Origin: an uncultured Alphaproteobacteria bacterium
Lineage (GTDB): Bacteria > Pseudomonadota > Alphaproteobacteria > RF32 > CAG-239
NCBI GenBank assembly: GCA_944390265.1
Contig: CALXPK010000024.1
Location: 11,183-75,182 of the forward strand
Direction: 5' to 3'
DNA: 64,000 nt
Under the pieces are notes generated by a model, which saw nothing but the letters and a program-made list of their open reading frames with translations, had not been told where the DNA came from and did no database searches. The translations under genes were made by a program, and so were the position numbers. Below, in pieces: positions 11,866 to 28,499 of the stretch (the first letter of the stretch is position 1; each line of letters begins with the position of its first letter).

Positions 11866-13026
11866 ATGAAAAAAATATTTTTGGCTTTGTTTTTCTTATT
11901 GTGCTCGGCAAACGCTGCCTCAGCCATGCAGATTTTTATTTTCACTTTGAACTCAAAACATATCACTCTGGAAGTTGAGCCTACGGATAAAGTGGAAGAT
12001 ATTAAACTGAAAATTTTGGATAAAGAAGGGGTGCCGGTCGATCAACAGCAATTAACTTTTGACGGCAAGGTGTTGAAAGATGGCTATACTTTGCAAGATT
12101 ATAGCATTCAAAAAGATTTTACTCTGAATTTGGTTTTGAAAAGTGAACTTAATATTGAGGCTTATCAGCTCAACTTTAATCCGGTTAATGTTGTCAGACA
12201 GAATACAGATATGTTGTTGAATACCATATCTTCTCGCACCACCGGCGGTATTCAGGCCTCAGCGGGCGGGGAGCAGATAAACCCCAAGGATAATTCATCT
12301 CTTTGGGTGAACAGCTTGACCGGACATTCCGAATATGCGGGAACAAATAGTAATGGTTTGGTCATGGGTTTTGAGAAAAAAACTTCGGCTTTTAAATATG
12401 GTTTGGGATATGGTTATTTGGAAAATGATATTGACGGCTTAAACTATGGTGCAGAAGCCAAAACACATTCCGGTTTTGTTTATGGTGAATATAAGCCTTC
12501 TTCTTGGTATGCTCATGCCATGCTGACCTATTCTCATTCGCGGTTTGAGGAAAATGATTTGAGCAAATATAATTTTCAGGCCGTCAGTTCTCAGATTATG
12601 AGCGGATATGATTTTGGCAATATAACGCCGGAAGCCGGTTTTAGATATATGCATATTTGGAATGATGATTATAGAGATGCAAAAAATGTTTATCTGTTTG
12701 AAAATGACGAAAATTTTTTGACGGGAATTGTCAGTGCCAAAGCGGACAAAGAGATAAAACTTGATAATGGATATCTCCTTGTGCCGCAGATTAAGGTTTC
12801 TGCCTTGTATGACTTGATGCAGGCAAATACTGATACGGGAGTTTTGATTTATGGGAATTATTATCAAATCAATACCGACAAAATTTCAAAATATGGTACG
12901 GAAATCAACCTCGGCGTTGAGCTGGCCAAGCAGAATCTTTGGTCCGCATATCTGGGTTATTACGGCCAGTTGAGAAATAATTATAATATGCATTCTGCGG
13001 TTTTGAATTTTCAATATGATTTTTAA
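11866..13026 (+). CDS. Autotransporter whose passenger is a eukaryote-like ubiquitin domain (signal peptide + Ubl + linker + C-terminal autotransporter beta-barrel)
   Basis: Signal peptide [20 protein letters not shown]; residues 21-92 [72 protein letters not shown], about 46/72 identical to ubiquitin by hand alignment; C-terminal about 250 aa with [13 protein letters not shown]... and terminal NFQYDF typical of autotransporter beta-domains. Confidence 0.85.
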
Positions 13027-13258: not shown

Positions 13259-13335
13259 GGGCGTGTAGCTCAGGTGGTTAGAGCGCTACGTTCACATCGT
13301 AGAGGTCACAAGTTCGAGTCTTGTCACGGCTACCA
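13259..13335 (+). tRNA. tRNA-Val (anticodon CAC)
   Basis: Cloverleaf folded by hand: D-arm GCTC-AGGTGGTTA-GAGC, anticodon arm CTACG-TTCACAT-CGTAG, T-arm ACAAG-TTCGAGT-CTTGT, ACCA end; one G-G mismatch at pair 3-70. Confidence 0.85.
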
Positions 13336-13378: not shown

Positions 13379-13738
13379 AGCCTTTATTCAATGGCGAAAA
13401 ATATACATTTATCGACAGATGTTTAAAGTTTGTAATACATAACTTATTGTTACTTATAATTCTTTGTTTTTTTTAGTGTTTTTTACAAAATAAAAGTTGA
13501 CTTTGTGTTTTGTGTTGCTACTATTGTGGTCAACCATTAACCAAGACTTTTGTATTGTGAATATCATATGTCTGAATGCCTGTTCAAAATGTTACAACTG
13601 ACGGAGTTTGCCTGTGATTGATACCAAAATTGCCGCTTGTTGTCCTTTGTTTTGTTTTGAAACGTGGCAGAATTTATCTCCTACTGCAACTATTTGCAAA
13701 AATTGTCAAAAAATCTTCAGAAGACAAAGGAAAAATCA

Positions 13739-15037
13739 ATGAAAATCGGAATTATCGGAACAGGCTACGTGGGGCTGCCGACCGGTGTCGGTTTGGCCGA
13801 ACTTGGCAACGAGGTGATGTGTATTGACCGAGAACCAACCAAAATCAACGCTTTGAAAGCCGGCAAAATTACTCTCTATGAGGCCGGATTGGAAGACTTG
13901 TTCCACAAAAATGTCAATGAAGGGCGTTTGCATTTTACCACCTCCATGAAAGAGGGTGTGGAAAATGCCGATATAGTGATTATTGCCGTCGGAACCCCGC
14001 CGCATCCGGTGACAAAAGAGGCTGATATGAAATATATTCATGCGGCCGCTACCGAACTGGCCGAATATTTGACCGGATATACCGTGGTGGCCGTGAAATC
14101 GACCGTGCCCGTCGGTACCGGTGATGATGTCGAGGCTCTTATTGCCAAAAAGAATCCGCATGCCGATTTTGATGTGATTTCTTTGCCTGAGTTTTTGCGC
14201 GAAGGTTTTGCCGTGCATGACTTTTATCATCCCGACAGGGTTGTGGTCGGTGCCGATAGCCCCAAAGCCAGACAACTTATTCAGAAATTGTATCAGCCGT
14301 TTGAAGGTCAGACTTCCGTTTTGTTTGTTAAACGTCGTTCCAGCGAAACCATTAAATATGCCTCCAATGCCTTTTTGGCGATGAAAATTCATTATATCAA
14401 CGAAATGGCTGATTTTTGCGAAAAAACCGGCGCCGATATTTATGAAGTGGCCAAAGGAATGGGCTTGGACAGCCGAATCGGGCCAAAATTTTTGAATCCG
14501 GGGCCGGGGTATGGCGGTAGTTGTTTTCCCAAAGATACTATGGCGATGTCTTATATGGCTCGGCAAAACGGCGTTAATATGACGCTGATTAATGCCGCTA
14601 TTGAAGGGAATCGGAACCGCAAAAAACAGATGGCAAAACGGATTTTGGATGCGGCTAAAGGAATTGAAAAACCGCGAATCGGCGTTTTGGGTTTGGCTTT
14701 CAAAAACGGAACCGATGATTGTCGGGAGAGTCCGGCCATTGAAATCGTGAGTGAGCTGATTAATCACGGGGCTTTGGTGACGGCTTATGACCCCAAAGCC
14801 ATGAATACGGCGCAAAAACTGCTCGGAGATAAGATAAGCTATGCTTCGGATATGTATCAAGCACTTGAAAAAGCCGACGTCTTGGCTGTTTTGACCGAAT
14901 GGGATGAGTTCAGAACTTTGGATTTGACCAAAGCGGCGCAGGTTATGAATCATAAAAATATTGTAGATTGCCGAAATTTGATTTGTCCCGATGAGGCCAA
15001 AAAATCAGGCTTTGCATATGAGGGAATCGGTCGATGA
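13739..15037 (+). CDS. ugd: UDP-glucose 6-dehydrogenase (nucleotide-sugar dehydrogenase family)
   Basis: RBS aaagga 7 nt upstream; MKIGIIGTGYVGLPTG Rossmann motif; GYGGSCFPKD active site. Confidence 0.9.
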   Translation: MKIGIIGTGYVGLPTGVGLAELGNEVMCIDREPTKINALKAGKITLYEAGLEDLFHKNVNEGRLHFTTSMKEGVENADIVIIAVGTPPHPVTKEADMKYIHAAATELAEYLTGYTVVAVKSTVPVGTGDDVEALIAKKNPHADFDVISLPEFLREGFAVHDFYHPDRVVVGADSPKARQLIQKLYQPFEGQTSVLFVKRRSSETIKYASNAFLAMKIHYINEMADFCEKTGADIYEVAKGMGLDSRIGPKFLNPGPGYGGSCFPKDTMAMSYMARQNGVNMTLINAAIEGNRNRKKQMAKRILDAAKGIEKPRIGVLGLAFKNGTDDCRESPAIEIVSELINHGALVTAYDPKAMNTAQKLLGDKISYASDMYQALEKADVLAVLTEWDEFRTLDLTKAAQVMNHKNIVDCRNLICPDEAKKSGFAYEGIGR

Positions 15038-15897
15038 ACAAAAAAATTGTTTATACTTGCATTTGCGGCGATTATGATAGCTTGGTCAAACAAAAATATG
15101 TGGCCGAAGATTATACTTATGTTTGTTTTACCGATAATCCGGATTATTTGAAAAAAGGTAGGGTTTTCAACTGGATTATTCGGCCGCTGGTTTTTGACAA
15201 ACTTGATGCTACCCACAACAATCGGTGGCACAAACTGCATCCGCATCTCTTGTTTCCCGACTGCGAAATCAGCATTTATATTGATGCCAATATCAATATT
15301 CTTTCACCTTATCTTTTTGAAAAAATTGAGGCCACCGATAAAGATTTGCTTATCCATAAACATTATGACCGAGATTGCGTTTTTGATGAAGCGCAAAAGA
15401 TTAAAAGTTTGCACAAAGACAGTGATGAAAATATTGATAAGATGCTGGCCTTTTTGGAGCAAGAGAAAATGCCCAGACATTACGGCCTGACCGAAAATAA
15501 TGTTTTGTGTCGCAAAAATACGCCGCTGTGCCGCAAAATTATGGAAGAATGGTGGTATTTTGTTCTCAACTATACCAAACGTGACCAAATGTCTTTGATG
15601 TATGTGTTGTGGAAAAACGGTCTCAAAGCTACCGATGTTTATTGGGAAGGCGACCGCAAAAATATTTATCGCTCCCAAAATCATGTAACTTATATTCCCA
15701 ATAATATGAAAATTTTCAACTTCGTGAAGCAAAAAGAATATGATATTTTTTATTTGTTGCGGGTTCCGGTTTTTAAAATTCGCAATAAGCCAAACAAAAA
15801 ATATGTATATCTTTTGGGTGTGAAAGTTTTATCCATTTCACCAAAGAAGGTTATGTTGTTTGGCATGATTCCACTCTATTATAAAATATTCAAATGA
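15034..15897 (+). CDS. DUF616-type (TOD1/MUCI70-like) glycosyltransferase
   Basis: 4-nt overlap with ugd; family call based on my recollection of the DUF616 architecture. Confidence 0.65.
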   Translation: MNKKIVYTCICGDYDSLVKQKYVAEDYTYVCFTDNPDYLKKGRVFNWIIRPLVFDKLDATHNNRWHKLHPHLLFPDCEISIYIDANINILSPYLFEKIEATDKDLLIHKHYDRDCVFDEAQKIKSLHKDSDENIDKMLAFLEQEKMPRHYGLTENNVLCRKNTPLCRKIMEEWWYFVLNYTKRDQMSLMYVLWKNGLKATDVYWEGDRKNIYRSQNHVTYIPNNMKIFNFVKQKEYDIFYLLRVPVFKIRNKPNKKYVYLLGVKVLSISPKKVMLFGMIPLYYKIFK

Positions 15898-15907
15898 GGA
15901 AAAGACA

Positions 15908-16852
15908 ATGAAAGCATTGATAACAGGCGGCGCCGGTTTTATCGGTTCAACCCTTGCGGATAAACTTTTGGCCGAAGGTCACGAGGTGATTGTTGTTGAT
16001 AACTTCAGCGACTATTATGATGTGAAACTCAAATGGCAAAATGTGGCGGCCAATATGAATAATCCGCATTATAAACTTTATGTGACCGATATTGAAAATA
16101 AGACGGCGTTGCGCAAGGTTTTTGAAGAAAACAACATAGATTGCGTTGTCCATTTTGCCGGAAGAGCCGGGGTCAGACCTTCTATTGAAATGCCGGAAGA
16201 ATATGTGAAGGCAAATATTTTGGGGGCGGTTCATGTTTTTGAACTGATGAAAGATTTTGGGGTGAAAAAAATTGTTTTTGCCTCTTCTTCTTCCGTTTAC
16301 GGAAATTGCAAGGCAGAAAAATTTTCCGAAGATTTAAATGTGCGTGAGCCCATTTCTCAATATGCGGCCAGCAAATCGGCCGATGAGCAATTTGCCTATA
16401 CTTATTCAAAATTGTATGGAATCAACGTTGTTTGTTTGCGCTTTTTTACGGTATACGGCCCGCGTCAGAGACCGGATTTGGCCATTAGAAAATTTATTGA
16501 ACTGATTGAACAGGACAAGCCTATCCAGATGTATGGCGATGGCAGCAGTATGCGCGATTATACCTATGTGGATGATATTGTGGCCGGTGTTCGTGCCGCT
16601 ATGGATTATGACAAAACGGCTTATGAAATTATTAATATCGGGGGAAGCTCTCCGGTGACTTTGCGCCAAATGATTGCCACGATTGAAAAAGTTTTGGGTA
16701 AAAAAGCCAAAATTGAACAACTCCCGATGCAAAAAGGCGATGTTGACAAAACCGTTTCCGACATATCCAAAGCCGCCAGACTTTTGGGTTATGCCCCACA
16801 AACCAGTTTTGAAGAAGGTATACAAAAGTTTGTTAAATGGAGAAAGCAATGA
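15908..16852 (+). CDS. NAD-dependent nucleotide-sugar epimerase, probably UDP-glucuronate 4-epimerase
   Basis: MKALITGGAGFIGSTL motif; YAASK catalytic pair; follows ugd. Confidence 0.85.
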   Translation: MKALITGGAGFIGSTLADKLLAEGHEVIVVDNFSDYYDVKLKWQNVAANMNNPHYKLYVTDIENKTALRKVFEENNIDCVVHFAGRAGVRPSIEMPEEYVKANILGAVHVFELMKDFGVKKIVFASSSSVYGNCKAEKFSEDLNVREPISQYAASKSADEQFAYTYSKLYGINVVCLRFFTVYGPRQRPDLAIRKFIELIEQDKPIQMYGDGSSMRDYTYVDDIVAGVRAAMDYDKTAYEIINIGGSSPVTLRQMIATIEKVLGKKAKIEQLPMQKGDVDKTVSDISKAARLLGYAPQTSFEEGIQKFVKWRKQ

Positions 16853-17922
16853 GCTTTTTTCAAAAAATAAGATATCCTAACGGGAAAAGAAAAGTCTTAT
16901 TCTTGGGTAAGAAAATTTTTTCTTATAGGGTCAAAAAAAATGAAAATGCAAAAGTTTTTTTACCTGATAGTTGCTTTGAAAAAAACGATATTTCCGCGGA
17001 ATCAATAAAGGTGGTTTATAAGCCTTTTATTAGTTTAAGTTTAGTTCCTGATTTTATTGCAAATAAAGATATTTATTATAATGAAGATAAACCCAATTTA
17101 TTAGCTAATTTGGACTCAGAATCCTATCGTACAATAATGACGGTATTAAATAAATATGAATATTTGTCCAATGGAGGAAGTAAAGATTTATTAGAAACAT
17201 CGGCGCAAATTCGATATAATAATACAGTTGTTAAGTCGTTTCTAAATAGCATTGAAAAACAAAAAGATGGAACTTATAAGTATAAAGATTTTATCTTGCC
17301 CGAAAATCATTTTGAAACTTCGGTTTTTTTAGATGAACATGGTTTGAATAAAATAAACAAAAAGTTTGTAAATGGTATAATTATTGACGTTGGTAGTTAT
17401 ATTGGTGATTCTATTCTAATTTTTAGAAAACATTTTCCGGATAATCAGATTATTGGTTTTGAAGCAACGACATGTAATTATGAGATGGCTTTGCAAACTC
17501 TAAAGTTAAATAATCTTAAAAATGTTCTGGTAGAAAATTTAGCACTTGGAGATAAAGAAGGAAGTTTAACTTTATCAACCGATCAAGGAAGCGGTAATAG
17601 TTGGGAATTTTCGTATTTATCTGAAAAAGTTGAACATTGTAAAATGGAGACATTTGATAATTATGTTAAAAAGCACAAGATAAAAAAAGTTGGTTTGATA
17701 AAAGTTGATATTGAAGGTGCGGAACAACTTTTTATTCGAGGGGCATTAGAAACAATTAAACGAGATAAGCCCATTATATTGATGAGTATTTATCATAATT
17801 ATGATGATTTGATGCATATTAAACCTTTTTTTGAAAAATTGAATCTTGGCTATACATTCAAAATTCACAAGCCGATAGATACTATTTTTAATGAAATATT
17901 GCTTATATGCCTACCTTTATAA
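16849..17922 (+). CDS. FkbM-family SAM-dependent methyltransferase with an N-terminal extension that begins with a shared leader motif
   Basis: GIIIDVGSYIGDS methyltransferase motif I; N-terminus MSFFQKIRYPNGKRKVLFLGKKIFSY aligns with the N-terminus of 21367..23853; very AT-rich. Confidence 0.8.
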   Translation: MSFFQKIRYPNGKRKVLFLGKKIFSYRVKKNENAKVFLPDSCFEKNDISAESIKVVYKPFISLSLVPDFIANKDIYYNEDKPNLLANLDSESYRTIMTVLNKYEYLSNGGSKDLLETSAQIRYNNTVVKSFLNSIEKQKDGTYKYKDFILPENHFETSVFLDEHGLNKINKKFVNGIIIDVGSYIGDSILIFRKHFPDNQIIGFEATTCNYEMALQTLKLNNLKNVLVENLALGDKEGSLTLSTDQGSGNSWEFSYLSEKVEHCKMETFDNYVKKHKIKKVGLIKVDIEGAEQLFIRGALETIKRDKPIILMSIYHNYDDLMHIKPFFEKLNLGYTFKIHKPIDTIFNEILLICLPL

Positions 17923-17940: not shown

Positions 17941-18636
17941 TTGGAAAAGTTGATGAAAAAAATTTTTGTTGAGACAGATTTTGCAAAATTGGATGTTGCT
18001 CGAAAACAACGAACCGGTTTTCCTGAGACGGTTTTTTGTTTGGGAAAGAGTAAAGAGCAAGTTGCTGATATCTTGCAGAATTTTGCATCGGTCGGGCAAA
18101 ATGTTTTGGGAACAAAATGTTCTCCTGAACAATTTGATTTTGCTTTGAAAAAAGGCTTGCCGGTTAAATATGATTCTTTATCACGAGTGATAAGCCTCGG
18201 GCAAAAAGAGACTAATCCTTTTAGGGGAAACATTGCCGTGTGCTGTGCAGGTACATCTGATTTGCCGATTTTGGAAGAAGCTGCTCAAGTTGCCGAATTT
18301 TTTGGAGCTGTTGTTGAAAGGTATGTTGATATCGGTGTTGCCGGAATCCAGCGTTTGTTTGCACAAATTGATAATATTCAAAAGGCTGACGTTGTTATTG
18401 CCGTGGCCGGAATGGAAGGGGCTTTGGCCAGCGTGTTGGCCGGTTTGGTCAGAACTCCGGTGATTGCCGTTCCGACATCGGTGGGATATGGCGCCTCTTT
18501 TCATGGTTTGGCGGCCATGCTTGCCATGCTTAATTCATGTGCCGAAGGCGTGTCGGTTGTTAATATTGATAATGGGTTTGGCGCTGCGGTTCAGGCTTGT
18601 CGAATCTTAGCACTAAAAGGAAGGATGAATGACTAA
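17941..18636 (+). CDS. larB: LarB, nickel-pincer nucleotide biosynthesis carboxylase/hydrolase (PurE-like)
   Basis: AVAGMEGALASVLAGLVRTPVIAVPTSVGYGASFHGLAAMLAMLNSCAEGVSVVNIDNGFGAA matches the LarB/PurE-like core. Confidence 0.85.
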   Translation: MEKLMKKIFVETDFAKLDVARKQRTGFPETVFCLGKSKEQVADILQNFASVGQNVLGTKCSPEQFDFALKKGLPVKYDSLSRVISLGQKETNPFRGNIAVCCAGTSDLPILEEAAQVAEFFGAVVERYVDIGVAGIQRLFAQIDNIQKADVVIAVAGMEGALASVLAGLVRTPVIAVPTSVGYGASFHGLAAMLAMLNSCAEGVSVVNIDNGFGAAVQACRILALKGRMND

Positions 18637-19855
18637 ATATTTATATTTTGACGGGTCTTGCGGTATTGCAGGAGATATGACAGTGGCGGCTCTGTTGGAT
18701 TTGGGTGCTCGTCGTGAAAAGTTGCAACAGGTTTTGGAAAGCCTAAAGTTGGATGGTGTGCATTATCATATTTCTCAAAAGTCTTCTTATAGTATTTTCG
18801 GGTGCGATTTTGATGTCCATCTTCTGCAGAAAACAGATTCTCATGAAGAAGAATATCTTATGAATGCACATCATCATGAACATCGTCATCATGAACATCG
18901 TCATTTGTCTGATGTGTATGAAATTATTGACCGTGGAAAAATGAGCGAAAGGGCACGCCTTTTGGCTAAAAAAATATTTGAAATAGTGGCACAGGCCGAA
19001 GCTAAAGCTCATGGCGTGAAGGTTGAAGATGTGCATTTTCATGAAGTGGGGGCTTTAGATTCAATTGTTGATATTGTTTCGGTTGCCGTGTTGATTGATG
19101 ATTTGGGTATTGAAAACTGTATTGTTACCGGTTTAAATGAAGGGCATGGCTTTGTTACTTGTCAGCATGGAAGTCTGCCGGTTCCGGTTCCTGCTGTTTT
19201 GAATATTGCCGAAAAATATGGCTTGATTTTGCGGCCGACCTCGGTTGAAGGTGAGATGGTGACACCTACCGGTATTGCCGTTGTTGCCGCTTTGAAAACA
19301 GATGCAAAACTTCCTCCTGCTTATAAAATTTTGAAGTCTGGTGTCGGGTTGGGAAAAAGAGATTTTGGTCGAGCTAATTTTTTGCGAGTTCAAATTATTG
19401 AAGATGTGGCTGACGAGAAACAAATTTTTGTAATTGAGAGTAATATTGATTATACCAGTGCCTAAGAATTGGGCTTTGCTCAAGAAAAACTGTTTGCTGC
19501 AAGTGCTTTGAATGTGCAGTTTGATCAAAAAAAAAAAAAAAAATGCCGACCGGCTTATCTGTTACGAATCATTTGCTCGGCTGATAAAGTTTCTGCTTTG
19601 GAAAAAGTTCTTTTTGAAAATACCTCGTCTATCGGTTGTCGGAAATATGTCGTGGAAAGAACAGTTATGACGCGTGAAAATATTTTAGTGCAGCTTGATT
19701 ACGGTCAAGTTAGCGTAAAAAAGTGTTGCTATTTGGATTTGGTGCGTTTTTATCCAGAATTTGAAAGTGTTAGACAATTGGCTTTGCAAACAGGTTTGTC
19801 TTTTCGAAAAATTTTTGATGATGCAAAATTGAAAGCTGAAGAAAACAAATGTTAG
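18629..19855 (+). CDS. larC: LarC nickel insertase (DUF111): the N- and C-terminal parts are in the same frame, separated by a single TAA at 19463-19465; an A17 tract lies at 19527-19543
   Basis: N-terminal part MTKYLYFDGSCGIAGDM... with His-rich HHHEHRHHEHRH; C-terminal part ...GCRKYVVERTVMTRENILVQLDYGQVSVKK... typical of the LarC C-terminal domain; both parts in frame 2. Confidence 0.75.
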
Positions 19856-20667
19856 ATAAGCTACAAAATTATCTGAAAAAAATGTCTGATGACGGAATTG
19901 CTTTGGCATATTCCGGTGGTGTCGATAGTTCTTTATTGCTAAAAATTTTGGCAGATTTGCATCGACAGAAAGATTTTCCTTTGGCCATATTGACCATGAA
20001 AACGGTTTTGCAAAGTTCCGAAGAAATTTCTGAGGCGGAATGTTTTGCCCGTACTTTAGGACTCAATATCAAAATATTGGTTTTTAATCCACTTTCTATA
20101 TCAGAAGTACACCATAATTCAGCTGATCGTTGTTATTTTTGTAAAAAAGCAATGTTTCAAAAATTTGCAGATTATGCCAAAGAGAATAACCTTCGTTATT
20201 TGATTGACGGAACCAATGCCGATGATGGAGACGAATATCGTCCGGGGTTGCGAGCTTTGTATGAGTTGGGTGTAATTTCTCCTCTGGCGGAACTTGGTAT
20301 TAATAAAGCCAATATTCGTCAAATGTCTCAAATTTTGGGACTAGCTTCGGCAACAAAGCCTTCCGTGCCATGTTTGGCTACAAGATTTGAATACGGAACT
20401 TGTTTGAATGAGATGCTGATTCAGCGTGTGGCGCAGGGAGAAGCTCTTATTAGACAAATGTTTCCCAATATGAAAAATTTGCGATTGCGTGTTCATTGCT
20501 GTGGTCGCTTAGCACGAATTGAGGTTGCTAATGAATATATAGGCGAGGTTTGTTCTTTGGCTCAAAATTTGGTTTTGAAATTGAAAAATTTGGGTTTTGA
20601 ATTTGTAACACTGGATTTGGAAGGATTTCGTTCCGGAAGTTTTGATGGACAGAAAAAGGGAAAATAA
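19849..20667 (+). CDS. larE: LarE, ATP-dependent sulfur transferase (PP-loop ATPase)
   Basis: PP-loop SGGVDSS; 272 aa. Confidence 0.85.
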   Translation: MLDKLQNYLKKMSDDGIALAYSGGVDSSLLLKILADLHRQKDFPLAILTMKTVLQSSEEISEAECFARTLGLNIKILVFNPLSISEVHHNSADRCYFCKKAMFQKFADYAKENNLRYLIDGTNADDGDEYRPGLRALYELGVISPLAELGINKANIRQMSQILGLASATKPSVPCLATRFEYGTCLNEMLIQRVAQGEALIRQMFPNMKNLRLRVHCCGRLARIEVANEYIGEVCSLAQNLVLKLKNLGFEFVTLDLEGFRSGSFDGQKKGK

Positions 20668-21329
20668 TGATGACTACAACAATTTTTATGCTCTGGACAA
20701 CAGCTTTTTTGACCGCGGTTATTCATACAATTGCCGGACCGGACCACTATTTGCCGTTTATTGCCATTGCTAAAAGTAAAAATTTTAGCCTTAAAAAGAC
20801 GTTGGTTTGGACGTTTGTTTGTGGACTCGGACATATCGGCAGTGCTTTGCTAATTGCTTTAGCTTTTATTTATTTTTCTCATTGGCTGAGCCAAGAAAAT
20901 TTTGAATGGATTGAGAAAAATCGCGGAGATGTGGCCGCATATGCCCTTATCGGTTTAGGTGCTGCTTATCTTTTGTGGGCTTTGCGGCATCGCTGGCAGC
21001 ATCGGCACGGCTTGGCTCATCAGCATCATTATTTGCCCGATGGTGACCAGCCAAATGTTACCGTTTGGGTCGTTTTTATTATATTCGTGTTTGGTCCTTG
21101 TGAAGCCTTGTTGCCGATTTTGACTGCTTCTAGTGTGTTGGGTGCTTCAGCTATTATTTCCAGCACGATTATTTTTTCATTGGCCACTATCGGTACAATG
21201 ATGCTGACTGTCACTCTTGGCTTGTTGGGAATGAAGGCTTTTCATTTTCAAAAAATGGAAAAATATGCTCATGAAATTGCCGGCGGAACAATCATGACTT
21301 GCGGTATGGCAATTTTGTGTGGACTGTGA
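20667..21329 (+). CDS. Putative nickel/cobalt transporter (NicO/HoxN-like membrane protein)
   Basis: 6-7 TM segments; HTIAGPDH motif in TM1; adjacent to larBCE. Confidence 0.55.
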   Translation: MMTTTIFMLWTTAFLTAVIHTIAGPDHYLPFIAIAKSKNFSLKKTLVWTFVCGLGHIGSALLIALAFIYFSHWLSQENFEWIEKNRGDVAAYALIGLGAAYLLWALRHRWQHRHGLAHQHHYLPDGDQPNVTVWVVFIIFVFGPCEALLPILTASSVLGASAIISSTIIFSLATIGTMMLTVTLGLLGMKAFHFQKMEKYAHEIAGGTIMTCGMAILCGL

Positions 21330-21366: not shown

Positions 21367-23853
21367 ATGAAACTTATTGAAAAGAAAAAATATTCAGACG
21401 GTCGTCGCAAAGTTTATGTCTTGGGCAAAAAAGTTTTGAGTTATAAACGCAAAAAAGCTCAAGAGGTGCTTGGCGCCGAAGAGAACGGCAAACCCAGTGA
21501 ATATGATATGATTTTTGCCAAAAGATTTTCAGGGCTGAATTTGTCTGAAAAGAGATTTATTTTGGAAAAACAATTTCGTTTTTATGCCGGTTATGATTTA
21601 AACCTCAATAATCCGCAGACCTTTAATGAGAAAACTCAATGGTATAAACTTTATTATTGTCATCCCTTAATGAAAGTTTGTGCTGATAAAGTTTTGGTTA
21701 GGGATTATGTTAAAGAAAAAATCGGCGAGAAATATTTGGTAGACATCATTGGGGTTTATGATGATGTGGAAAAAATTGACTGGGACAAACTTCCAGACCA
21801 GTTTGTTTTGAAAGTTAATCACGGCAGCGGGCAAAATCTTATTTGCAAAGATAAGAAACAGTTTGATATTGCTCAGGCCAAGGCCAAACTTGCCGAGTGG
21901 ATGGATCCGAAAAATAATCATGCATATAATTATTTGGAATATGCTTATAAAAATATTGAACCGAAAATTGTGGCTGAAAAATATATCAAACAAATGGATG
22001 GCAATTTGCTCGACTATAAATTTTTCTGTTTTGACGGCAAAGCCCAATATGTGCAGATTGATCTTGACCGATATACGCATCATACACGTTGCTTTTATGA
22101 TATGGATTTTAAAAAACAAGAATTTACAACTTGTTATCCTTTTTATACCGGTGAGGTTGAAAAGCCAGAAGCCTTTGATGAAATGAGAAAAATTGCTGAG
22201 ACTTTGGCGCATGGCTTTCCTTTTGTGCGGGTTGATTTGTATAATTTGGACGGAAAAGTTAAGTTTGGGGAGATGACTTTTTATCACGGAAACGGAACCG
22301 AACATTTTGAACCCCAAGAATGGGATTTGAAATTGGGCAAACTTTTCAAACTCCCAAAATTTCCCTATATGGCTGATGATGCAACCAAGCGTTCAGTTGG
22401 GGTTTATTATCGCGATGTTTTTACTTATCCTGACAAAAAATATAATTTTCGCCCCTCAAAGGCTTATCCGGAATATCCGTTTCAGAATGAAATTTCTTCC
22501 GAACCTAATGAGGTTTATGATATGGTCAGAGAGAATTTTCATTTGATGAAAATGGATGAAGAAAATTTTGGAACAGCAAAATGGAACCCTCTGAAAGAGA
22601 TTGTTCATCCCGGAGATAAGGTCTTGCTTAAGCCCAATCTGGTTTTGCATCACAATCTTTTGGGCTTGGGCGAGGATTGTCTCTATACACAGCCTTCGGT
22701 GACGGCGGCCGTGATTGATTATGTGCTGATTGCTCTGCAGGGAAAAGGGTCTATCATTGTCGGCGATGCGCCTTTGCAAGAATGTGTCTTTGACACTTTG
22801 GTCCAAGAAAGCGGCTATGATCAGTTGATTGCATATTATCAAAACAAAGGTGTGGATATTCAGCTTAAAGATTTTAGAAACGTGAAAACTTATGTCGGAA
22901 AAGACGGTATTCACTATACGCAAGATGACAGCCAAAACCATAAAGATGAAGGTTTGGTAGTGCATTTGGATGCTTATAGCAGTTTTTATGGTTTGGATGA
23001 GGAAAGAATATCGCGAATGCGCATTACCAACTATGATCCGCGTATTTTGCAAAAACACCATTCTTCGCAAAAACATGAATATAAGGTTTCAAAATATATT
23101 CTTGAGGCAGATGTGATTATCAATCTTCCCAAACCCAAAACACACCGAAAAGCCGGTGCTACTTCTGCCTTAAAAAACTTGGTCGGAATTAATGCCAATA
23201 AAGAATTTTTGCCTCATCATACCAATTTGAGCAAGCAAGAAGGCGGTGATGCCTATTTTCATAAGTCACAAGCCTTGCAAATTGCAAATGAATGGTTAGA
23301 TAAAATGAATATCTTTACCGCAGAAGGTAAGGTTGAAGAGGCACAGAAAGCAAAAGCAATGTATTATCAATATTCAGATTTTGGCAAAGCTGAGTCCGGT
23401 GAGATTTATTGGGAAGGAAGTTGGTATGGTAATGATACCATTTGGAGAACTTTGTTCGATTTGAACAAAATTCTGTTCCATGCCGATAAAAACGGAATCA
23501 TCAGAGCCAATAAGCAAAGAAGATATTTTGTGGTGGCTGACATGATTGTTTCCGGCGAAAAAGAAGGCCCTCTTGAGCCGACACCCAGACCGGTCGGAAT
23601 GATTGCCATGGGCTATGATCCTTGTTGCTTTGATCAGGCCATTGTTTCTATGATGGGGTTTGATTATCGGCTTTTGCCTTCCGTTTATGAGATAAAAAAC
23701 AGAAAAGGCGGTGTTTGCGAGATTACGTCCGGTGCAGAACCTTTGTTGTTGAGCAATGTTCCGCAATGGCAAGGAAAAAGCGTTGATGAAATTAAGCAAA
23801 CTTGTTCTTTGCAATTTTATCCAACCAACGGATGGAAAAAAGTTTTATGGTAA
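21367..23853 (+). CDS. 828-aa fusion protein: shared N-terminal leader motif + TupA-like ATP-grasp amidoligase + C-terminal DUF362-like domain
   Basis: RBS gagggga before the ATG; N-terminus MKLIEKKKYSDGRRKVYVLGKKVLSY; ATP-grasp-like middle; C-terminal region with the PKPKTHRKAGATSALKNLVG motif. Confidence 0.75.
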   Translation: MKLIEKKKYSDGRRKVYVLGKKVLSYKRKKAQEVLGAEENGKPSEYDMIFAKRFSGLNLSEKRFILEKQFRFYAGYDLNLNNPQTFNEKTQWYKLYYCHPLMKVCADKVLVRDYVKEKIGEKYLVDIIGVYDDVEKIDWDKLPDQFVLKVNHGSGQNLICKDKKQFDIAQAKAKLAEWMDPKNNHAYNYLEYAYKNIEPKIVAEKYIKQMDGNLLDYKFFCFDGKAQYVQIDLDRYTHHTRCFYDMDFKKQEFTTCYPFYTGEVEKPEAFDEMRKIAETLAHGFPFVRVDLYNLDGKVKFGEMTFYHGNGTEHFEPQEWDLKLGKLFKLPKFPYMADDATKRSVGVYYRDVFTYPDKKYNFRPSKAYPEYPFQNEISSEPNEVYDMVRENFHLMKMDEENFGTAKWNPLKEIVHPGDKVLLKPNLVLHHNLLGLGEDCLYTQPSVTAAVIDYVLIALQGKGSIIVGDAPLQECVFDTLVQESGYDQLIAYYQNKGVDIQLKDFRNVKTYVGKDGIHYTQDDSQNHKDEGLVVHLDAYSSFYGLDEERISRMRITNYDPRILQKHHSSQKHEYKVSKYILEADVIINLPKPKTHRKAGATSALKNLVGINANKEFLPHHTNLSKQEGGDAYFHKSQALQIANEWLDKMNIFTAEGKVEEAQKAKAMYYQYSDFGKAESGEIYWEGSWYGNDTIWRTLFDLNKILFHADKNGIIRANKQRRYFVVADMIVSGEKEGPLEPTPRPVGMIAMGYDPCCFDQAIVSMMGFDYRLLPSVYEIKNRKGGVCEITSGAEPLLLSNVPQWQGKSVDEIKQTCSLQFYPTNGWKKVLW

Positions 23854-23865
23854 GAAAGGAAAAAA

Positions 23866-24888
23866 ATGCAAACGAAAACTTCTATAGTTGTTAATTCTGA
23901 TAATAATTTAGCTTTTGCCGTAGCTACATTATTTGTTAATTTGTTGGAAACTAAGAAAAATGAAAATTTTCTGGATTTGAACGTTTTGGTTACTCCGGAT
24001 TTTGATGATGAGTATATCAAAAAAATAAAGTCCATAGAGCAACAATATGAGGGGCAGTGTTCGGTTAATGTTATAAAAATGGATCACCGATTTGACAATA
24101 TTCGCAATAAGACAGGATATATTACAAATTGTGCTGCCTATAGAATGTGTGTTGCAGAGATGTTTCCCTCGCATCATAAAATGTTGTATATTGACACGGA
24201 TGTCGTCGTCTTTGATGATTTGTACGAGCTCTTTAATACGGATATTAACGGATATTATATTGGAGGCGTGTTTAGTATTGAGCATTATATTTATAGAAAT
24301 GAATTGATAGAAAAATTATCCATTCCCGATTTATCTCAATATGTTAATTCCGGAGTTCTTTTATTGAATTTGGATGAGATAAGAAAAGATAATGTTGAAG
24401 CTAAATTGCACGCGTTGCTCGGCTCATATGATGATTCTGTTGATCAACATATTTTTAATAAGGTTTGTTACGGGCATATAAAGCTGTTGCCTTTTAAATA
24501 TAATGTTTTTCAATCTTCAGAATGGATGTATGAAAGCAAAAAAGCGTTGGTTGAGATGACTGAAGCGGAGTTGGAAGAAGTTATTAAAAGGCCGGTAATT
24601 TATCATTATACGGGAACTGTTAAGCCGTGGCTTGTGGCGGATAAAAAATATGCCTTAAGATGGATGAGATATTATAAAAAATCGCCGTTTGCAACAGAAA
24701 AATTACCACTACATTTCATGGATGAACATGTGTATCTTATGCCCAAATTGACTTTTTGGCAAAAAATATTTTCTATTAATTTAATTTCCAATAAAAATAA
24801 TACTAAGAGCAAATATAAAGTTTTTCTATTGGGTATGCAAATAAATTACAGAAAAAAGAAGAAACAGAAACAGCAAGGAGAAAATTAA
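23866..24888 (+). CDS. Family 8 glycosyltransferase (LgtC/RfaJ-like)
   Basis: YIDTDVVVFDD DxD motif; GYITNCAAYRM. Confidence 0.85.
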   Translation: MQTKTSIVVNSDNNLAFAVATLFVNLLETKKNENFLDLNVLVTPDFDDEYIKKIKSIEQQYEGQCSVNVIKMDHRFDNIRNKTGYITNCAAYRMCVAEMFPSHHKMLYIDTDVVVFDDLYELFNTDINGYYIGGVFSIEHYIYRNELIEKLSIPDLSQYVNSGVLLLNLDEIRKDNVEAKLHALLGSYDDSVDQHIFNKVCYGHIKLLPFKYNVFQSSEWMYESKKALVEMTEAELEEVIKRPVIYHYTGTVKPWLVADKKYALRWMRYYKKSPFATEKLPLHFMDEHVYLMPKLTFWQKIFSINLISNKNNTKSKYKVFLLGMQINYRKKKKQKQQGEN

Positions 24889-25877
24889 TGATTCCAATAG
24901 TTGCAATATCTGATGCCAAGCAGGCATTTGCTTTGGCAACATTGTTTGTTAATTTGATGGAAACTAAGGCAAAAGAAACTGTTTATGAACTCAATGCTTT
25001 GGTCGCACCGGATTTTACCGATGAGGATGTGGCAAAAATAAAATCTCTTGAGCATAGTTATCAGGATTGCAAAATCAATATTATCAAGATGGATAATCGC
25101 TTTGATCATATCAAAAACGGAACCGGTTATATTGCCAATTGTTGTGCTTATAAAATGTGTATGGCGGAGATGTTTCCGCAATATGATAAAATTTTGTATC
25201 TGGATACGGATATGCTTGTTTTTGAAGATTTGAGCCCGCTTTATAATACGGATATGTCCGATAATTATATCGGTGGGGTCTTTTCTATTGATCATTATCT
25301 TAATCGGCGTGAGTTGATTGAAAAACTTAATATTCCCGATATGACGGACTATGTGAATGCCGGAATGCTGTTGATGAATTTGGCGGAAATCAGAAAAAAC
25401 AGAATTGAAGAAAAATTGCAAGCCTTAATCGGCTCGTATAATGATTCGGTTGATCAGCATATTTTTAACAAGGTTTGCTATGGGCATATTAAGCATTTGC
25501 CTTTCAAATATAATGTCTTTAAATCTTCCGAGTGGATGTATGATAACAAGGAGGCTTTGGTCTGCATGACCGGAGAAGAGCTTGATGAAATAATCAACAG
25601 TCCGGCTATTTATCATTATACCGGTAAAGAAAAGCCTTGGAACACACTGAAAATTAAATATGGTGTGCGGTGGATTTGGTATTATAAAAAGACGGCTTAC
25701 AAAGATTTAAAGTTGATTTTGGCCGAAGTCAAAAAAATAGAAACGACAACACCGCAAAAAGTTAAAATGCGTTTAATCGACTATGTTTTTTCAATTAAAA
25801 AATATAAAAAACAAGGTAAATCTTTTAAACAATTGACCATTTTAGGGCTTAAGCTGAAATTGCAAAAAAATAAATAA
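24888..25877 (+). CDS. Family 8 glycosyltransferase, tandem paralog of the preceding gene (about 70% aa identity by eye)
   Basis: YLDTDMLVFED DxD motif; colinear similarity to 23866..24888. Confidence 0.85.
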   Translation: MIPIVAISDAKQAFALATLFVNLMETKAKETVYELNALVAPDFTDEDVAKIKSLEHSYQDCKINIIKMDNRFDHIKNGTGYIANCCAYKMCMAEMFPQYDKILYLDTDMLVFEDLSPLYNTDMSDNYIGGVFSIDHYLNRRELIEKLNIPDMTDYVNAGMLLMNLAEIRKNRIEEKLQALIGSYNDSVDQHIFNKVCYGHIKHLPFKYNVFKSSEWMYDNKEALVCMTGEELDEIINSPAIYHYTGKEKPWNTLKIKYGVRWIWYYKKTAYKDLKLILAEVKKIETTTPQKVKMRLIDYVFSIKKYKKQGKSFKQLTILGLKLKLQKNK

Positions 25878-25901: not shown

Positions 25902-26873
25902 TTGATTAAAATAAATTTTATTGTTTTATCTTCTGCAGATCGAGGATCAACCCGAATCAGAGTGTTTAATCTGGTTAATGCTTTGAAACGCTATGACGTT
26001 GATGTCAGAATCAATGCGCCGCTTTATTGGGGTGATATTTGTGCTTTTCATAAAGAGTTAAAACCCAACAAACTGGAACGGCGTTTGCGTCTTGCCAATT
26101 TGCTGGGAAAATTTACTTGTTTTGATATTGATGACTATTTTGAGGATTATAAAAAGGTTGTTAAGGCGGCGGATTTGTGCATTAACAGTACCGCATATTT
26201 GCAGAAGATAAACAGTCAATATAATCTGCATGATATTGTGGTGGACAATAGTCTTGACGTGGATGATGTCAATATCAAACTCAAACAAGATTGTTCTGCG
26301 CATCAAAAGGTTTGTTGGTACGGTTGCCATGTTAATGCTTATATTTTGGATAAGTTTAATATCAAAAACGTGACCATTATTTCTGAAAAAGGAGATATTA
26401 TTTGGCACAAAGAAACCATAGACCAAGATTTGCAAAAATTTGATTTGACGATTATTCCGCAAGAAAAAACACCGCATACTCTGGCTAAGACACATTGCCG
26501 AATGTTGAAGGCTTTGTATTTGGGCGTGCCGGTGATGGTTACGGATATGCCGGAATATGTGGACTTGGCTCAATATCTCAATTATCCCAAAGAATTTATT
26601 GTGACCAATTCGCAAGATTGGAATCAAAAAATTGAAGATTTTAAGTCCGGAAAGTTGAAATTTAGCTTTGATTTTGAACAGGCACGCAAGAAAATATTGC
26701 AGAGATACGCGCCTGCTGTTATTGCCGATAGCTGGATTAAACAAGTGAAAGCTGAATATTTGCAGTATCAAAAACACAAAATCAGAAATTGGTTTAAGAA
26801 AAACAGCCTTAAAAATCTATATAGATTGCTTAAAATAACAATACGTATCAGACATGGAAAGCACGCCAGATAA
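25902..26873 (+). CDS. Putative glycosyltransferase-like protein (TTG start)
   Basis: Long AT-rich ORF in line with the glycan locus; family is uncertain. Confidence 0.45.
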   Translation: MIKINFIVLSSADRGSTRIRVFNLVNALKRYDVDVRINAPLYWGDICAFHKELKPNKLERRLRLANLLGKFTCFDIDDYFEDYKKVVKAADLCINSTAYLQKINSQYNLHDIVVDNSLDVDDVNIKLKQDCSAHQKVCWYGCHVNAYILDKFNIKNVTIISEKGDIIWHKETIDQDLQKFDLTIIPQEKTPHTLAKTHCRMLKALYLGVPVMVTDMPEYVDLAQYLNYPKEFIVTNSQDWNQKIEDFKSGKLKFSFDFEQARKKILQRYAPAVIADSWIKQVKAEYLQYQKHKIRNWFKKNSLKNLYRLLKITIRIRHGKHAR

Positions 26874-26948: not shown

Positions 26949-28423
26949 TCAGATTTTGACAATGCCATGGGCAAAGGCATAAATGGCCCAAAGTGAAAGA
27001 ATAATAAAGATGGTTACAGCGGCATATTCACGAGCCGTAAAGAGCTTCTCATTTGGCTCAGACTCTTTTCTGGCCCAGATATAAACCGGAATACCCAAGG
27101 TGACAATCACAACCGCCATCAGCAAATAATTTAAGCCGGCGGCATAAATCAGCCAAAGAGCATAGATTGAGCCGAAAACCGAGGTAAACAAAGCCGAAGA
27201 GCGTTTGACCGGTAAGCCGCTCGGATATTCGCCGTCTTCACAAAGTTTCCATAAATAAGCGCAGGAGGCAAAATAGGCCGGCAATACCATGACGCTGGTG
27301 ATGCTCAACATGGTGTTCCAGGCGTTGTTGGAGAAATAGACCAACAAGATGAAAATTTGCATCATGGCTGAGGTGACCCAAAGTGAAACGCTCGGTGAAC
27401 CGGCTTCATTCTCTTTGGTGAAGGCTTTGGGAAAAGTACCGTTTTCAGCAGCAGCTTGCGGAATTTGTGCGGTGACGATTGTCCAGGCCAGCCAGCTGGT
27501 CAACACCGAAAGAACCAAGCCGATGTTCATAATCCAAGCGCCCCAAGGTCCGACAACTTTTTCCAAAATGCCGGCGGTGGACGGAGGTGGAACAGCAGCG
27601 AGTTCGGGTTGTGACATCAATCCATAAGGCAGTAATGAGAGCAACAGATAAATGACTAAGCAACCGATGAAGCCCAAAAACGTTGCTTTGCCGATTTCTT
27701 GAACATTTTTGGCGCGGTTAGACATGACAACGGCACCTTCAATACCAATAAATGCCCACAAGGTGACCAACATGGTCGATTTGATTTGGGTTTCCAAACC
27801 GCCGAGTTTGGCTTTGGTTTCAATGGCTTCGCCCCAGAAGTCAAAGTCAAAATGAGCAAATTTGAACACAAACAGCATTATCAAAATGAACAAAACCAAC
27901 GGGACAACCTTAACAACCGTGCCGATGGTGTTGATGACGGAGGCTTGTTTGATGCCTTTCAAGACCAAAAAGTTGAAGCCCCAAATGATGATTGAGCCCC
28001 GATGATGGAGGCGAGGTTGTTGCCGCCGGCAAAGTAGGGCGGAAAGAAGTAGTTCAACGCATCCATCGTGATGACGGCATAACCGACATTGCCGCAAACC
28101 TGACAAAGCCAATAGGACCAGCCGATGGTGAATCCGGCAAAGGGGCCGAAACCTTCACGGCTGTACATATAAATACCGGTGGTTAAATCCGGCTTGGCCA
28201 TGGACAAGATGCTGAAGGTGTTGGCAATGAAATAGATACCGATACCGGTGATGACCCAAGCCAGCAAAACGGCTCCGGCAGAAGCATGCGAGGCCATGTT
28301 TTGCGGCAAGGAATAAATGCCGCCGCCAATCATGGAGCTGACAACAATCGCGGCTAAGGCCAGAACACCCAAGCCGTTGGGGTTGTTTTTCAGCGGTGCG
28401 GCAGAAGTTTTTTTATCAGCCAT
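26949..28423 (-). pseudogene. APC-family basic amino acid antiporter (arginine:agmatine or arginine:ornithine, AaxC/ArcD-like) disrupted by a -1 frameshift at a C4 (minus-strand G4) tract 27996-27999
   Basis: N-part [11 protein letters not shown]...GGNNLASII in one frame, C-part [19 protein letters not shown]... in another; adding one G gives a contiguous ...[19 protein letters not shown]. Confidence 0.8.
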
Positions 28424-28499
28424 AATTTTTTTTCCTTAATTAACAAAATAAAACAAAACTTGCCCCTTTACTCAAAGAGGCAAGTCTTTTGTCTGAAAA

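Follow-up and report, generated by a model that had tools for sequence, protein, structure and literature searches.

The 64-kb window (the whole stretch of DNA analysed) carried the genes for LarB, LarC and LarE together with that for a membrane protein, all lying within a run of glycan genes and immediately followed by a gene for an 828-aa protein in which a TupA-like ATP-grasp domain is fused to a DUF362 domain with a LarA-type fold. The reading that best accounts for this arrangement, although somewhat short of an even chance, regards DUF362 as a LarA-like nickel-pincer enzyme working with the uronate amidoligase fused to it. Such a protein may represent a new type of nickel enzyme whose target is a bacterial surface polysaccharide.

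Gene content and organization of the lar region

All genes between 13.6 and 26.9 kb were located on the + strand with their ends overlapping or no more than 37 nt apart (Table 1), and a scan of the intergenic gaps in this region found no terminator-like sites on that strand. The region of ~13.5-26.9 kb is best explained as a single operon for a uronic-acid-containing surface polysaccharide, and the tRNA-Val gene immediately 5′ of the glycan/lar block is likely the boundary of an island. The first-pass annotation had placed larB, larC, larE and a membrane protein gene here, co-directional with overlapping or abutting ends and flanked by genes for an FkbM methyltransferase and an ATP-grasp/DUF362 fusion, and each of these genes was found at the position given. 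The low GC content that it had ascribed to the block was not uniform, GC being uneven among the genes (0.28-0.46).

Table 1. Positions of the features of the glycan/lar block within the 64-kb window
Feature	Position	Strand	Evidence
tRNA-Val (cac)	13259..13335	+	Rfam tRNA, 61 bits; ARAGORN
Ugd, UDP-glucose 6-dehydrogenase	13664..15037	+	Pfam UDPG_MGDP_dh N, central and C domains; NCBIfam TIGR03026, 460 bits
TOD1/MUCI70-like glycosyltransferase-like protein	15034..15897	+	PF04765, E=9e-14
NAD-dependent SDR sugar-nucleotide epimerase/dehydratase	15908..16852	+	PF01370, PF16363
FkbM-family methyltransferase	16837..17922	+	TIGR01444, 92 bits
LarB	17941..18636	+	NF033503, 284 bits (cut-off 175)
LarC N-terminal part (LarC1)	18629..19465	+	TIGR00299, 202 bits (cut-off 90)
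LarC C-terminal part (LarC2)	19469..19855	+	NF052512, 84 bits (cut-off 50)
LarE	19849..20667	+	TIGR00268, 250 bits (cut-off 150)
220-aa membrane protein, putative nickel permease	20667..21329	+	~6 helices; no Pfam or NCBIfam match
828-aa fusion, N-terminal half: TupA-like ATP-grasp	21367..22386	+	PF14305, E=1.6e-66, aa 88-328
828-aa fusion, C-terminal half (aa 341-828): DUF362	22387..23853	+	Pfam PF04015
DUF362 motif PKPKTH(593)RKAGATSALK(603)NLVGINANKEFLPH(617)H(618)	23128..23220	+	hhalign, same register in three runs
GT8 glycosyltransferase, first	23866-24888	+	PF01501 (pair E=3e-38 and 3e-37)
GT8 glycosyltransferase, second	24888-25877	+	PF01501 (pair E=3e-38 and 3e-37)
323-aa protein, end of co-directional block	25902..26873	+	No Pfam match; kept in L078

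The same gene order was observed in an independent metagenome contig (L078), which was 99.0% identical over 16.8 kb. Ugd, whose product is UDP-glucuronate, likely starts at ATG 13739, and its orthologue in L078 was called as 432 aa. The FkbM methyltransferase possessed the N-terminal motif KRKVLFLGKKIFSY, and a basic C-terminal motif was spotted by eye in both GT8 proteins. The TOD1/MUCI70 domain is found fused to DUF362 in other organisms.

LarB is the nicotinic acid adenine dinucleotide (NaAD) carboxylase/hydrolase catalysing the first step of nickel-pincer cofactor synthesis, whereas LarE is an ATP-dependent sulfur insertase. The products of the lar genes scored above the curated equivalog cut-offs, with both LarC pieces matching Pfam Ni_insertion and LarB sharing 61-64% identity with LarB of related operons. 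LarC had the His-rich run HHHEHRHHEHRH (aa 81-92, nt 18869-18904), in agreement with the earlier description of a His-rich segment, and its split was found to be caused by an in-frame TAA at 19463-19465 and not by a frameshift, LarC1 and LarC2 sharing one frame. In LarE, the motifs SGGVDS, CYFC and PCLA were located at aa 22, 95 and 174, respectively, and the resulting CxxC...C arrangement suggests a catalytic [4Fe-4S] type, the meaning of LarE cysteine motifs having been described (PMC9283937).

The 220-aa membrane protein contained HTIAGPDH at aa 20-27 (helix 1) and a His-rich loop, HRWQHRHGLAHQHH, at aa 108-121, both invariant across the operons compared. It had no match in Pfam or NCBIfam even at E<=5, and its single-sequence model was poor (pLDDT 52); a homologue with 72-79% identity followed larE in the related operons L068, L070, L071 and L072. 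The His-x5-Asp-His signature and the His-rich loop presumably reflect a resemblance to HupE/UreJ nickel permeases, and the protein is probably a nickel permease. The membrane gene annotated after larE as a putative Ni transporter was confirmed; its linkage to larE was conserved, and a match to a transporter family was absent.

The ATP-grasp/DUF362 fusion and its relation to LarA

In the 828-aa protein, the terminal motif RRKVYVLGKKVLSY precedes the ATP-grasp domain, which matched PF14305 over its full length (model positions 1-241 of 241). The TupA-like family includes the amidoligase Cj1438C of Campylobacter jejuni (PMC11800379, PMC11800397), and ATP-dependent amidation of a uronate carboxylate has been shown for Cj1438C only (PMC11800397). 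Because of this family match and the presence of Ugd in the operon, the ATP-grasp half is predicted to be a uronate amidoligase. In 53 of 65 loci a TupA-like ATP-grasp domain was either fused to DUF362 or linked to it, both domain orders occurring, and the DUF362/ATP-grasp module was widespread in gut and rumen bacteria.

DUF362 comprises thousands of uncharacterised proteins, many of which are reportedly joined to iron-sulfur domains. It shares Pfam clan CL0471 with DUF2088 (PMC11770544), the domain of the LarA superfamily of nickel-pincer-dependent 2-hydroxyacid racemases and epimerases. The first-pass annotation had singled out the C-terminal part of the fusion for comparison with LarA, and a LarA-type fold was indeed found there (aa 341-828), along with a His/Lys/His motif aligned to that of LarA; ~226 of the 488 residues superposed, at 10-15% identity and with low global TM-scores (0.22-0.34). 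With the sequence-verified 5HUQ chain as the LarA reference, three hhalign runs aligned the His-x9-Lys-x14/15-His of DUF362 with His174, Lys184 and His200 of LarA, pairing His593 with His174, Lys603 with Lys184, and His618 with His200. The roles of these LarA residues, including Lys184 as cofactor tether and His200 as nickel ligand, have been described (PMC12611868). By sequence alignment, Lys603 is the predicted equivalent of the tethering lysine and, like His617, it was invariant in alignment A1. The motif was near-universal in both the long and the short DUF362 subfamilies, being present in 120/120 top matches, 147/148 representatives and 119/120 short-type proteins, and its conservation suggests that DUF362 may bind the cofactor.

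Other parts of the two domains corresponded less closely. The strand end GDAPLQEC, judged topologically to be the site of LarA His108 in a region of low alignment confidence, had no His; LarA homologues with one catalytic His exist (PMC12611868). Around LarA Asp72 and Arg75, which bind the ribose and the phosphate of the cofactor, respectively, the hhalign register was unreliable and no equivalents were assigned in DUF362; the invariant K-P-N with which the first strand ends is no more than a candidate. A DUF2088/LarA N-terminal model gave no match on aa 341-828, where PF04015 (DUF362) alone was hit, and LarA was not retrieved by PDB sequence searches with either the single sequence or the A1 profile of the DUF362 domain. 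The literature searched contained no report of DUF362 binding a nickel-pincer cofactor.

No DUF2088 or aldo-keto reductase (AKR; PF00248) domain was detected by Pfam among the ~50 ORFs of the 64-kb window, and neither L. plantarum LarA nor the AKR of L068 gave a tblastn match in it. The first-pass annotation was correct in that the window has no DUF2088/LarA gene, but a LarA-type fold does adjoin the lar genes, in the form of the LarA-clan domain DUF362.

Proposed pathway and alternative explanations

In the pathway proposed, Ugd and the SDR epimerase would provide UDP-uronates, the TOD1-like and GT8 transferases would build the chain, the FkbM protein would methylate it, and the TupA-like half would amidate the uronate carboxylate as Cj1438C does in C. 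jejuni. A complete cofactor set, consisting of LarB, LarC, the [4Fe-4S]-type LarE and the His-rich, nickel-importing permease, would have been recruited into the operon in the source species and would supply the nickel-pincer nucleotide (NPN) to the C-terminal DUF362 half of the fusion. As a diverged LarA homologue, DUF362 would tether the cofactor through Lys603, ligate nickel through His617/618 and employ His593 as general base, catalysing a redox-neutral hydride-shuttle step, either an epimerisation or an isomerisation via a transient carbonyl, on the uronate residue or on the group attached by the amidoligase. It is conceivable, but rather doubtful, that DUF362 overall is a second LarA-clan nickel-pincer family, whose amidoligase-fused member in the window would bring organometallic nickel hydride-shuttle chemistry to the decoration of surface polysaccharide.

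The main alternative, possible though less than probable, is an incidental adjacency, in which the lar genes, together with the permease gene, would have moved without their usual AKR-ferredoxin partner into a variable tRNA-side glycan island, the cofactor would serve an unlinked AKR-ferredoxin or DUF2088 protein, and DUF362 would fulfil its glycan role without it, as in the many loci where lar genes are not close by. In 65 other loci of this DUF362 subfamily, no gene for LarB, LarC, LarE or the permease was present within 10 kb. Locus L066, which encodes the closest fused homologue (66% identity) and is arranged TOD1-SDR-MT-MT-GT8-ATPgrasp/DUF362, was partly syntenic with the window, having the order of TOD1, SDR, GT8 and fusion genes in common and an SDR 87% identical to that of the window, and it too had no lar genes. 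In the closest lar operons, from gut Alphaproteobacteria (LarC 61-72% identical to that of the window), AKR-ferredoxin directly preceded larB in four of four distinct contexts (L068/69, L070, L071/72 and L073), so the client of the window's lar genes may be an AKR encoded at another site of the genome; the lar cluster of C. butyricum also had an AKR. In favour of DUF362 as client, a second, short DUF362 protein with a twin-arginine-like N-terminus (TAT_signal Pfam match weak, E=0.16, below the cut-off) adjoined the AKR-lar operon in L068/L069; against it, the short DUF362 was found away from lar genes in five further contexts. For AKRs, 427 instances of co-occurrence with lar genes have been counted, and the AKR NphT is a proven cofactor user (PMC13524815). 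Because related lar clusters were near integrase and resolvase genes and the island of the window abuts tRNA-Val, the region is considered mobile. Additionally, the DUF362 motif was intact in Saccharibacteria, Tenericutes and uncultured Bacilli MAGs, lineages in which small genomes are expected and cofactor biosynthesis is not.

Against an incidental adjacency, the chance of a relocated four-gene block landing 37 nt 5′ of a LarA-clan gene, of which a genome has very few, co-directionally and at operon-like spacing, was put by rough estimate at ~0.1-0.3%. Moreover, the AKR-larB linkage that is strictly kept elsewhere is broken in the window, neither an AKR nor a DUF2088 protein is encoded in the 64 kb, and the conservation in DUF362 of exactly those residues that tether the cofactor, ligate nickel and act as base in LarA would be left unexplained. 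The first-pass annotation had suggested an NPN-dependent racemisation or epimerisation step in surface-glycan synthesis, with a 2-hydroxyacid substituent or a sugar acid as possible substrate. This suggestion is supported in part: the operon packing and the adjoining LarA-like DUF362 favour it, whereas the 65 lar-less loci, L066 and the AKR-ferredoxin clients weigh against it.

It is improbable that the lar block is a remnant, the species having lost the AKR client while the lar genes persist as passengers of the operon and begin to decay, with the larC stop as the first sign. Such decay would agree with the lack of an AKR in the window, with the in-frame TAA, and with an A17 run (19527-19543) in LarC2 that the DNA alignment with L078 placed inside a ~100-nt patch of clustered substitutions, 10 of the 11 codons differing in LarC being non-synonymous. 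However, 99%-identical strains have GAA at the TAA site, LarC being intact in L078 and two further ENA members (403-408 aa), and LarB, LarE and the permease differed from L078 by 0-1 non-synonymous codons each, with motifs intact. The stop could be a sequence error, and the altered patch may stem from faulty assembly or consensus calling because its length is kept and the damage is sharply local. Use of the cofactor by another protein of the operon, such as the 323-aa protein or the TOD1-like protein, appears very improbable, for although cofactor users without a LarA fold exist (NphT and ornithine cyclodeaminase; PMC13524815) and the 323-aa protein has no family assignment, nothing points to either protein specifically, both are farther from the lar genes, and the LarA fold with its motif is found in DUF362 only.

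Returning to DUF362 as the client, the window offers a testable candidate for a further nickel-pincer family, in which a LarA fold with tether and nickel-ligand residues shares an operon with the genes for cofactor synthesis. If true, DUF362 would gain an assigned cofactor, the reach of nickel-pincer chemistry would widen beyond free hydroxyacids and sugars to the making of cell-surface glycans, and a function could be proposed for the DUF362/ATP-grasp module of gut and rumen bacteria. Were DUF362 overall a nickel-pincer family, this would help explain the many genomes possessing larBCE without larA. If refuted, the case would indicate that guilt by association with lar genes can mislead even where the neighbour is a LarA homologue.

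Comparison with known nickel-pincer and amidoligase systems

Only three scaffolds are known to use nickel-pincer cofactors, namely LarA, the AKR NphT and ornithine cyclodeaminase, yet hundreds of prokaryotes make the cofactor without having LarA; NphT was itself found through genome-context adjacency to larBCE (PMC13524815). As with NphT, the candidate client was recognised here by a His/Lys motif and by its position next to larBCE in a cluster that has no LarA, and the lar genes of the window are orthologous to those of operons carrying the AKR-ferredoxin fusion. Unlike the case of NphT-type AKRs, the window has no AKR, and the candidate has a LarA fold instead of a TIM barrel.

Like the L. 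plantarum lar operon, the window cluster combines larB, larC in two parts, larE and a gene for a putative nickel transporter in one co-directional cluster, but larA is absent from it. In the window, an in-frame stop interrupts LarC, versus a programmed frameshift in L. plantarum, and LarE shows the CxxC...C motif typical of [4Fe-4S] LarE proteins, versus a single sacrificial cysteine. The nickel transporter of L. plantarum is a multi-subunit ECF type, whereas that predicted in the window is a single six-helix protein without a family match.

The C. jejuni capsule system shares with the window a full-length TupA-like ATP-grasp, the likeness to Cj1438C being one of family; neither a DUF362 partner nor lar genes are described in two papers on that system (PMC11800397, PMC11800379). 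Since the window locus encodes Ugd, a uronate carboxylate would be available to an amidoligase of the Cj1438C type. Multidomain fusions with glycosyltransferases were found in relatives of the 828-aa protein. Compared with LarA (DUF2088; e.g. L. plantarum LarA, PDB 5HUQ), DUF362 has a three-helix insertion following the motif, is fused to an ATP-grasp domain in a glycan-operon setting and mostly occurs without lar genes nearby; nevertheless, it belongs to the same clan, possesses a motif that aligns with LarA residues and, in the window, adjoins larB, larC and larE.

Organization of the glycan/lar block

The + strand carried every gene from about 13.5 to 26.9 kb, with ends overlapping or separated by gaps of no more than 37 nt. 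A scan of the + strand revealed no terminator-like site in any intergenic gap of the block, and directly downstream the strand switched, the following genes lying on the other strand. Scores for LarB, LarC and LarE were all above the NCBI curated equivalog cut-offs. Neither DUF2088 nor an aldo-keto reductase (AKR) was found by Pfam searches of about 50 window ORFs or by tblastn with L. plantarum LarA and the AKR of a relative. Since gene assignments, packing and the missing DUF2088 all held, the first-pass annotation was correct in placing larB, larC and larE inside a co-directional, tightly packed glycan block and in seeing no LarA-type DUF2088 gene in the window. Rfam searches of the window returned tRNAs as the only matches and no riboswitches. 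For the 220-aa membrane protein (putative nickel permease) following larE, single-sequence structure prediction was poor (pLDDT 52).

Features of the glycan/lar block and of other regions of the window
Feature	Coordinates	Strand	Basis or position
tRNA-Met	11306-11382		upstream of ubiquitin-like gene
386-aa ubiquitin-like protein	11866-13026	+	
tRNA-Val	13259-13335	+	just upstream of glycan/lar block
Ugd	13664-15037	+	domain and family-model searches
TOD1/MUCI70-like glycosyltransferase-like protein	15034-15897	+	domain search
SDR sugar-nucleotide epimerase	15908-16852	+	domain and family-model searches
FkbM methyltransferase	16837-17922	+	domain and family-model searches
LarB	17941-18636	+	curated family model
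LarC, two pieces	18629-19465 and 19469-19855	+	domain and family-model searches
LarE	19849-20667	+	curated family model
220-aa membrane protein	20667-21329	+	domain and family-model searches
828-aa protein, TupA-like ATP-grasp and DUF362	21367-23853	+	domain search
Two GT8 transferases	23866-24888 and 24888-25877	+	domain search
323-aa protein, family unassigned	25902-26873	+	domain search
Amino-acid permease and pyruvoyl-dependent arginine decarboxylase	26949-29150	-	converging on glycan operon end
Tandem overlapping Ppx/GppA phosphatase paralogues	33482-34591 and 34551-35603	+	
tRNA gene	49974-50046	-	
585-aa protein, phage tail-fibre gp53-like C-terminal domain	50299-52056		following the tRNA gene

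The lipopolysaccharide genes in the window (LpxA-like, LpxI, LpxB and EptA), together with an autotransporter, indicated a Gram-negative host, and the named closest LarC homologues came from Alphaproteobacteria or Pseudomonadota MAGs. Variable genomic islands typically show a layout such as that seen here, with tRNA-Met and tRNA-Val upstream of the ubiquitin-like gene and the glycan/lar block, respectively. The 386-aa protein between these tRNAs had a signal peptide and then a ubiquitin domain; over 72 residues this domain matched human ubiquitin at 64% identity, with the C-terminal Gly-Gly missing; its C-terminal part of about 290 aa, ending in ...NFQYDF, resembled by eye an outer-membrane beta-barrel. 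This protein, kept in same-species contigs, may be a ubiquitin shown on the cell surface by an autotransporter-like protein. The amino-acid permease and decarboxylase pair may constitute an arginine/agmatine module.

At one terminus, five glycan enzymes of the operon had in common a short, basic peptide fitting (K/R)(K/R)KV..LGKK..SY, located N-terminally in FkbM (16885-16926) and the ATP-grasp/DUF362 protein (21403-21444) and, in looser versions, at the C-termini of TOD1 and both GT8s; the lar proteins were without it. The peptide may serve in docking or as a membrane tag; at comparable Lachnospiraceae loci the enzymes share a C2185-like domain instead.

The DUF362 domain and its relation to LarA

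The C-terminal 488 aa of the 828-aa protein, corresponding to DUF362, had more than 3,600 detectable homologues, with 787 clusters at 50% identity (E<1e-30). AlphaFold modelling with a 45-sequence alignment gave a pLDDT of 94.7. As modelled, this half of the protein is a LarA-fold protein; because only about 226 residues superposed, with 10-15% identity, it is a distant relative. DUF362 and DUF2088 belong to one Pfam clan, and DUF362 served as an outgroup in a 2024 study of LarA (PMC11770544). In sequence searches LarA was not recovered from the PDB with either the domain alone or the 45-sequence profile. The PDB matches that the profile did give were caused by a Rossmann-like C-terminal extension of Lachnospiraceae homologues. 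Many of the Lachnospiraceae DUF362 proteins (P0005-P0120) had this extension, which is about 100 aa long and by annotation of the C2185-like_N type. It weakly matched Rex as well as the UDP-D-quinovosamine 4-dehydrogenase N-terminal domain, and was lacking in the window protein.

Three profiles (the 45-sequence alignment, a diverse one of 126 sequences, and one of short-type DUF362) were aligned by hhalign with the single L. plantarum LarA sequence, checked to be identical to the 5HUQ chain, in which published residue numbers equal sequence position minus one. Probabilities were weak (0.2-4%), and only a His/Lys/His segment, whose register was the same in all three runs, was relied on: His593 corresponded to LarA His174, Lys603 to Lys184 and His618, adjacent to His617, to His200. 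In LarA enzymes these are a catalytic base, the cofactor tether and the nickel ligand, respectively (PMC12611868). The motif H-x9-K-[NS]-x12-15-H was present in 120/120 close homologues, 147 of 148 cluster representatives, 119/120 members of the quite different short DUF362 subfamily, and 16 of 17 taxonomically distant loci, the loose pattern falling on a nearby segment in the remaining one (L020). For His108, Asp72 and Arg75 no DUF362 counterparts were assignable. Judged from these alignments, the cofactor-holding residues of LarA appear to be conserved in DUF362.

Genomic contexts of DUF362 and of lar genes

In 65 DUF362 subfamily loci from 58 GTDB species genomes and metagenome contigs, genes within 10 kb included those for TupA-like ATP-grasp (53), SDR (30), Ugd (21) and TOD1 (15), and LarB, LarC, LarE or the permease in none. 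DUF362-ATP-grasp fusions occurred in both domain orders, and TOD1, GT2 and GT4 domains were other fusion partners. With this frequency, both fusion orders and no lar neighbors, DUF362 is a stable partner of amidoligase-type ATP-grasp in glycan assembly lines, normally away from lar genes. Cj1438C, a TupA-like ATP-grasp, acts on the elongating capsule chain of C. jejuni, where it amidates the carboxylate of glucuronate (PMC11800397, PMC11800379), and other such enzymes are predicted to attach amino-acid decorations (PMC13419641). The closest fused homologue (L066; 66% identity, SDR 87%) lies in the order TOD1-SDR-MT-MT-GT8-ATPgrasp/DUF362 without lar genes; hence, in the window's species, the lar block has the look of an insertion into a glycan gene order that already existed. 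Plasmid searches yielded no long-type DUF362 and six short or diverse matches, and no lar genes lay within 8 kb at the three of these loci inspected.

The closest LarC proteins (61-72% identity) were encoded in operons ordered AKR-ferredoxin, LarB, LarC, LarE, followed, where the contig extended, by the permease (72-79% identity). This order held in four distinct contexts (L068/69, L070, L071/72 and L073), and the AKR-ferredoxin orthologues of these relatives shared 75-82% identity; a metagenome scan with the LarC query gave one locus only. Since the AKR-ferredoxin protein just before larB in L068-L073 had a twin-arginine-like N-terminus and tatA/tatC adjoined the lar operon in L070-L072, these loci suggest that a nickel-pincer AKR with iron-sulfur clusters operates in the periplasm. 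Cofactor use has recently been demonstrated for the class of AKRs encoded next to lar genes, in the case of NphT; the co-occurrences number 427 (PMC13524815). The one annotated plasmid lar cluster inspected, from C. butyricum, had the order flavodoxin-larBCE-ECF transporter-AKR and no DUF362. No such AKR was present in the window. In L068/L069 the AKR was directly preceded by a short DUF362 whose N-terminus was twin-arginine-like; as short DUF362 elsewhere was not beside lar genes, this adjacency may be indirect. Selenomonas plasmid pSRC1 carried a short DUF362 among AKR, flavodoxin and DUF5131 genes.

Candidate users of the cofactor

A functional link between the lar genes and the DUF362 domain is put forward tentatively. 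It is favored by the homologous fold, the conservation of precisely the tether, nickel-ligand and base residues, and the operon-level adjacency seen again in a second assembly. It is also favored by a rough estimate: for a lar block that had moved, the chance of coming to lie next to one of the few LarA-clan genes of a genome would be about 0.1-0.3%. It is disfavored by the 0/65 lar association, the partly syntenic L066, the AKR as usual client in this lar lineage, and a motif intact in presumed small-genome lineages (Saccharibacteria, Tenericutes and Bacilli MAGs, loci L044 and L049-L054), where cofactor synthesis is presumably not expected; no report of DUF362 binding or using the nickel-pincer cofactor was found in the searched literature. 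An incidental adjacency has an appreciable, though lower, probability.

The damaged larC of the window copy also speaks against the link, and would suit a decaying remnant. An independent ENA contig (L078), 98.99% identical over 16.8 kb with the same genes and order, encoded LarC as a single 408-aa protein, and two more cluster members had an intact 403-aa LarC. Relative to L078, substitutions in larC were clustered in a patch of about 100 nt (about 19395-19545) of unchanged length, with GAA to TAA creating an in-frame stop at 19463-19465, and 'EPCYMKK' becoming 'DQKKKKK' through an A17 run (19527-19543); 10 of 11 differing LarC codons were non-synonymous. LarB, LarE and the permease were near-identical in the two strains, and synonymous and non-synonymous changes in the lar genes were few at strain level. 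Either a sequencing or assembly error confined to this spot or a larC knockout peculiar to the strain could account for the patch. The lar genes as a whole are not decaying, and a remnant is improbable. That the client is another protein of the operon is more improbable still; the 64 kb without any other client favor the DUF362 link.

Were DUF362 the client, nickel would be taken up via the putative His-rich permease, NaAD converted to the pincer nucleotide by LarB, LarE and LarC, and the cofactor tethered by Lys603. The domain might then perform a redox-neutral hydride shuttle via a transient carbonyl on the uronate amidated by the fused ATP-grasp domain, or on the group being attached. We infer this mechanism; speculatively, a sugar acid in furanuronic or open-chain form, whose free hydroxyl lies alpha to the carboxylate, would be one fit to LarA chemistry.

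Taken alone, the lar genes are unremarkable. LarE possesses the motifs SGGVDS and CYFC...PCLA, the latter agreeing with the CxxC...C signature that marks the catalytic [4Fe-4S]-type LarE (PMC9283937). The novelty lies in a lar operon being paired with a glycan enzyme of the DUF362/ATP-grasp kind, and in fold and motif data by which DUF362 could constitute a nickel-pincer family.
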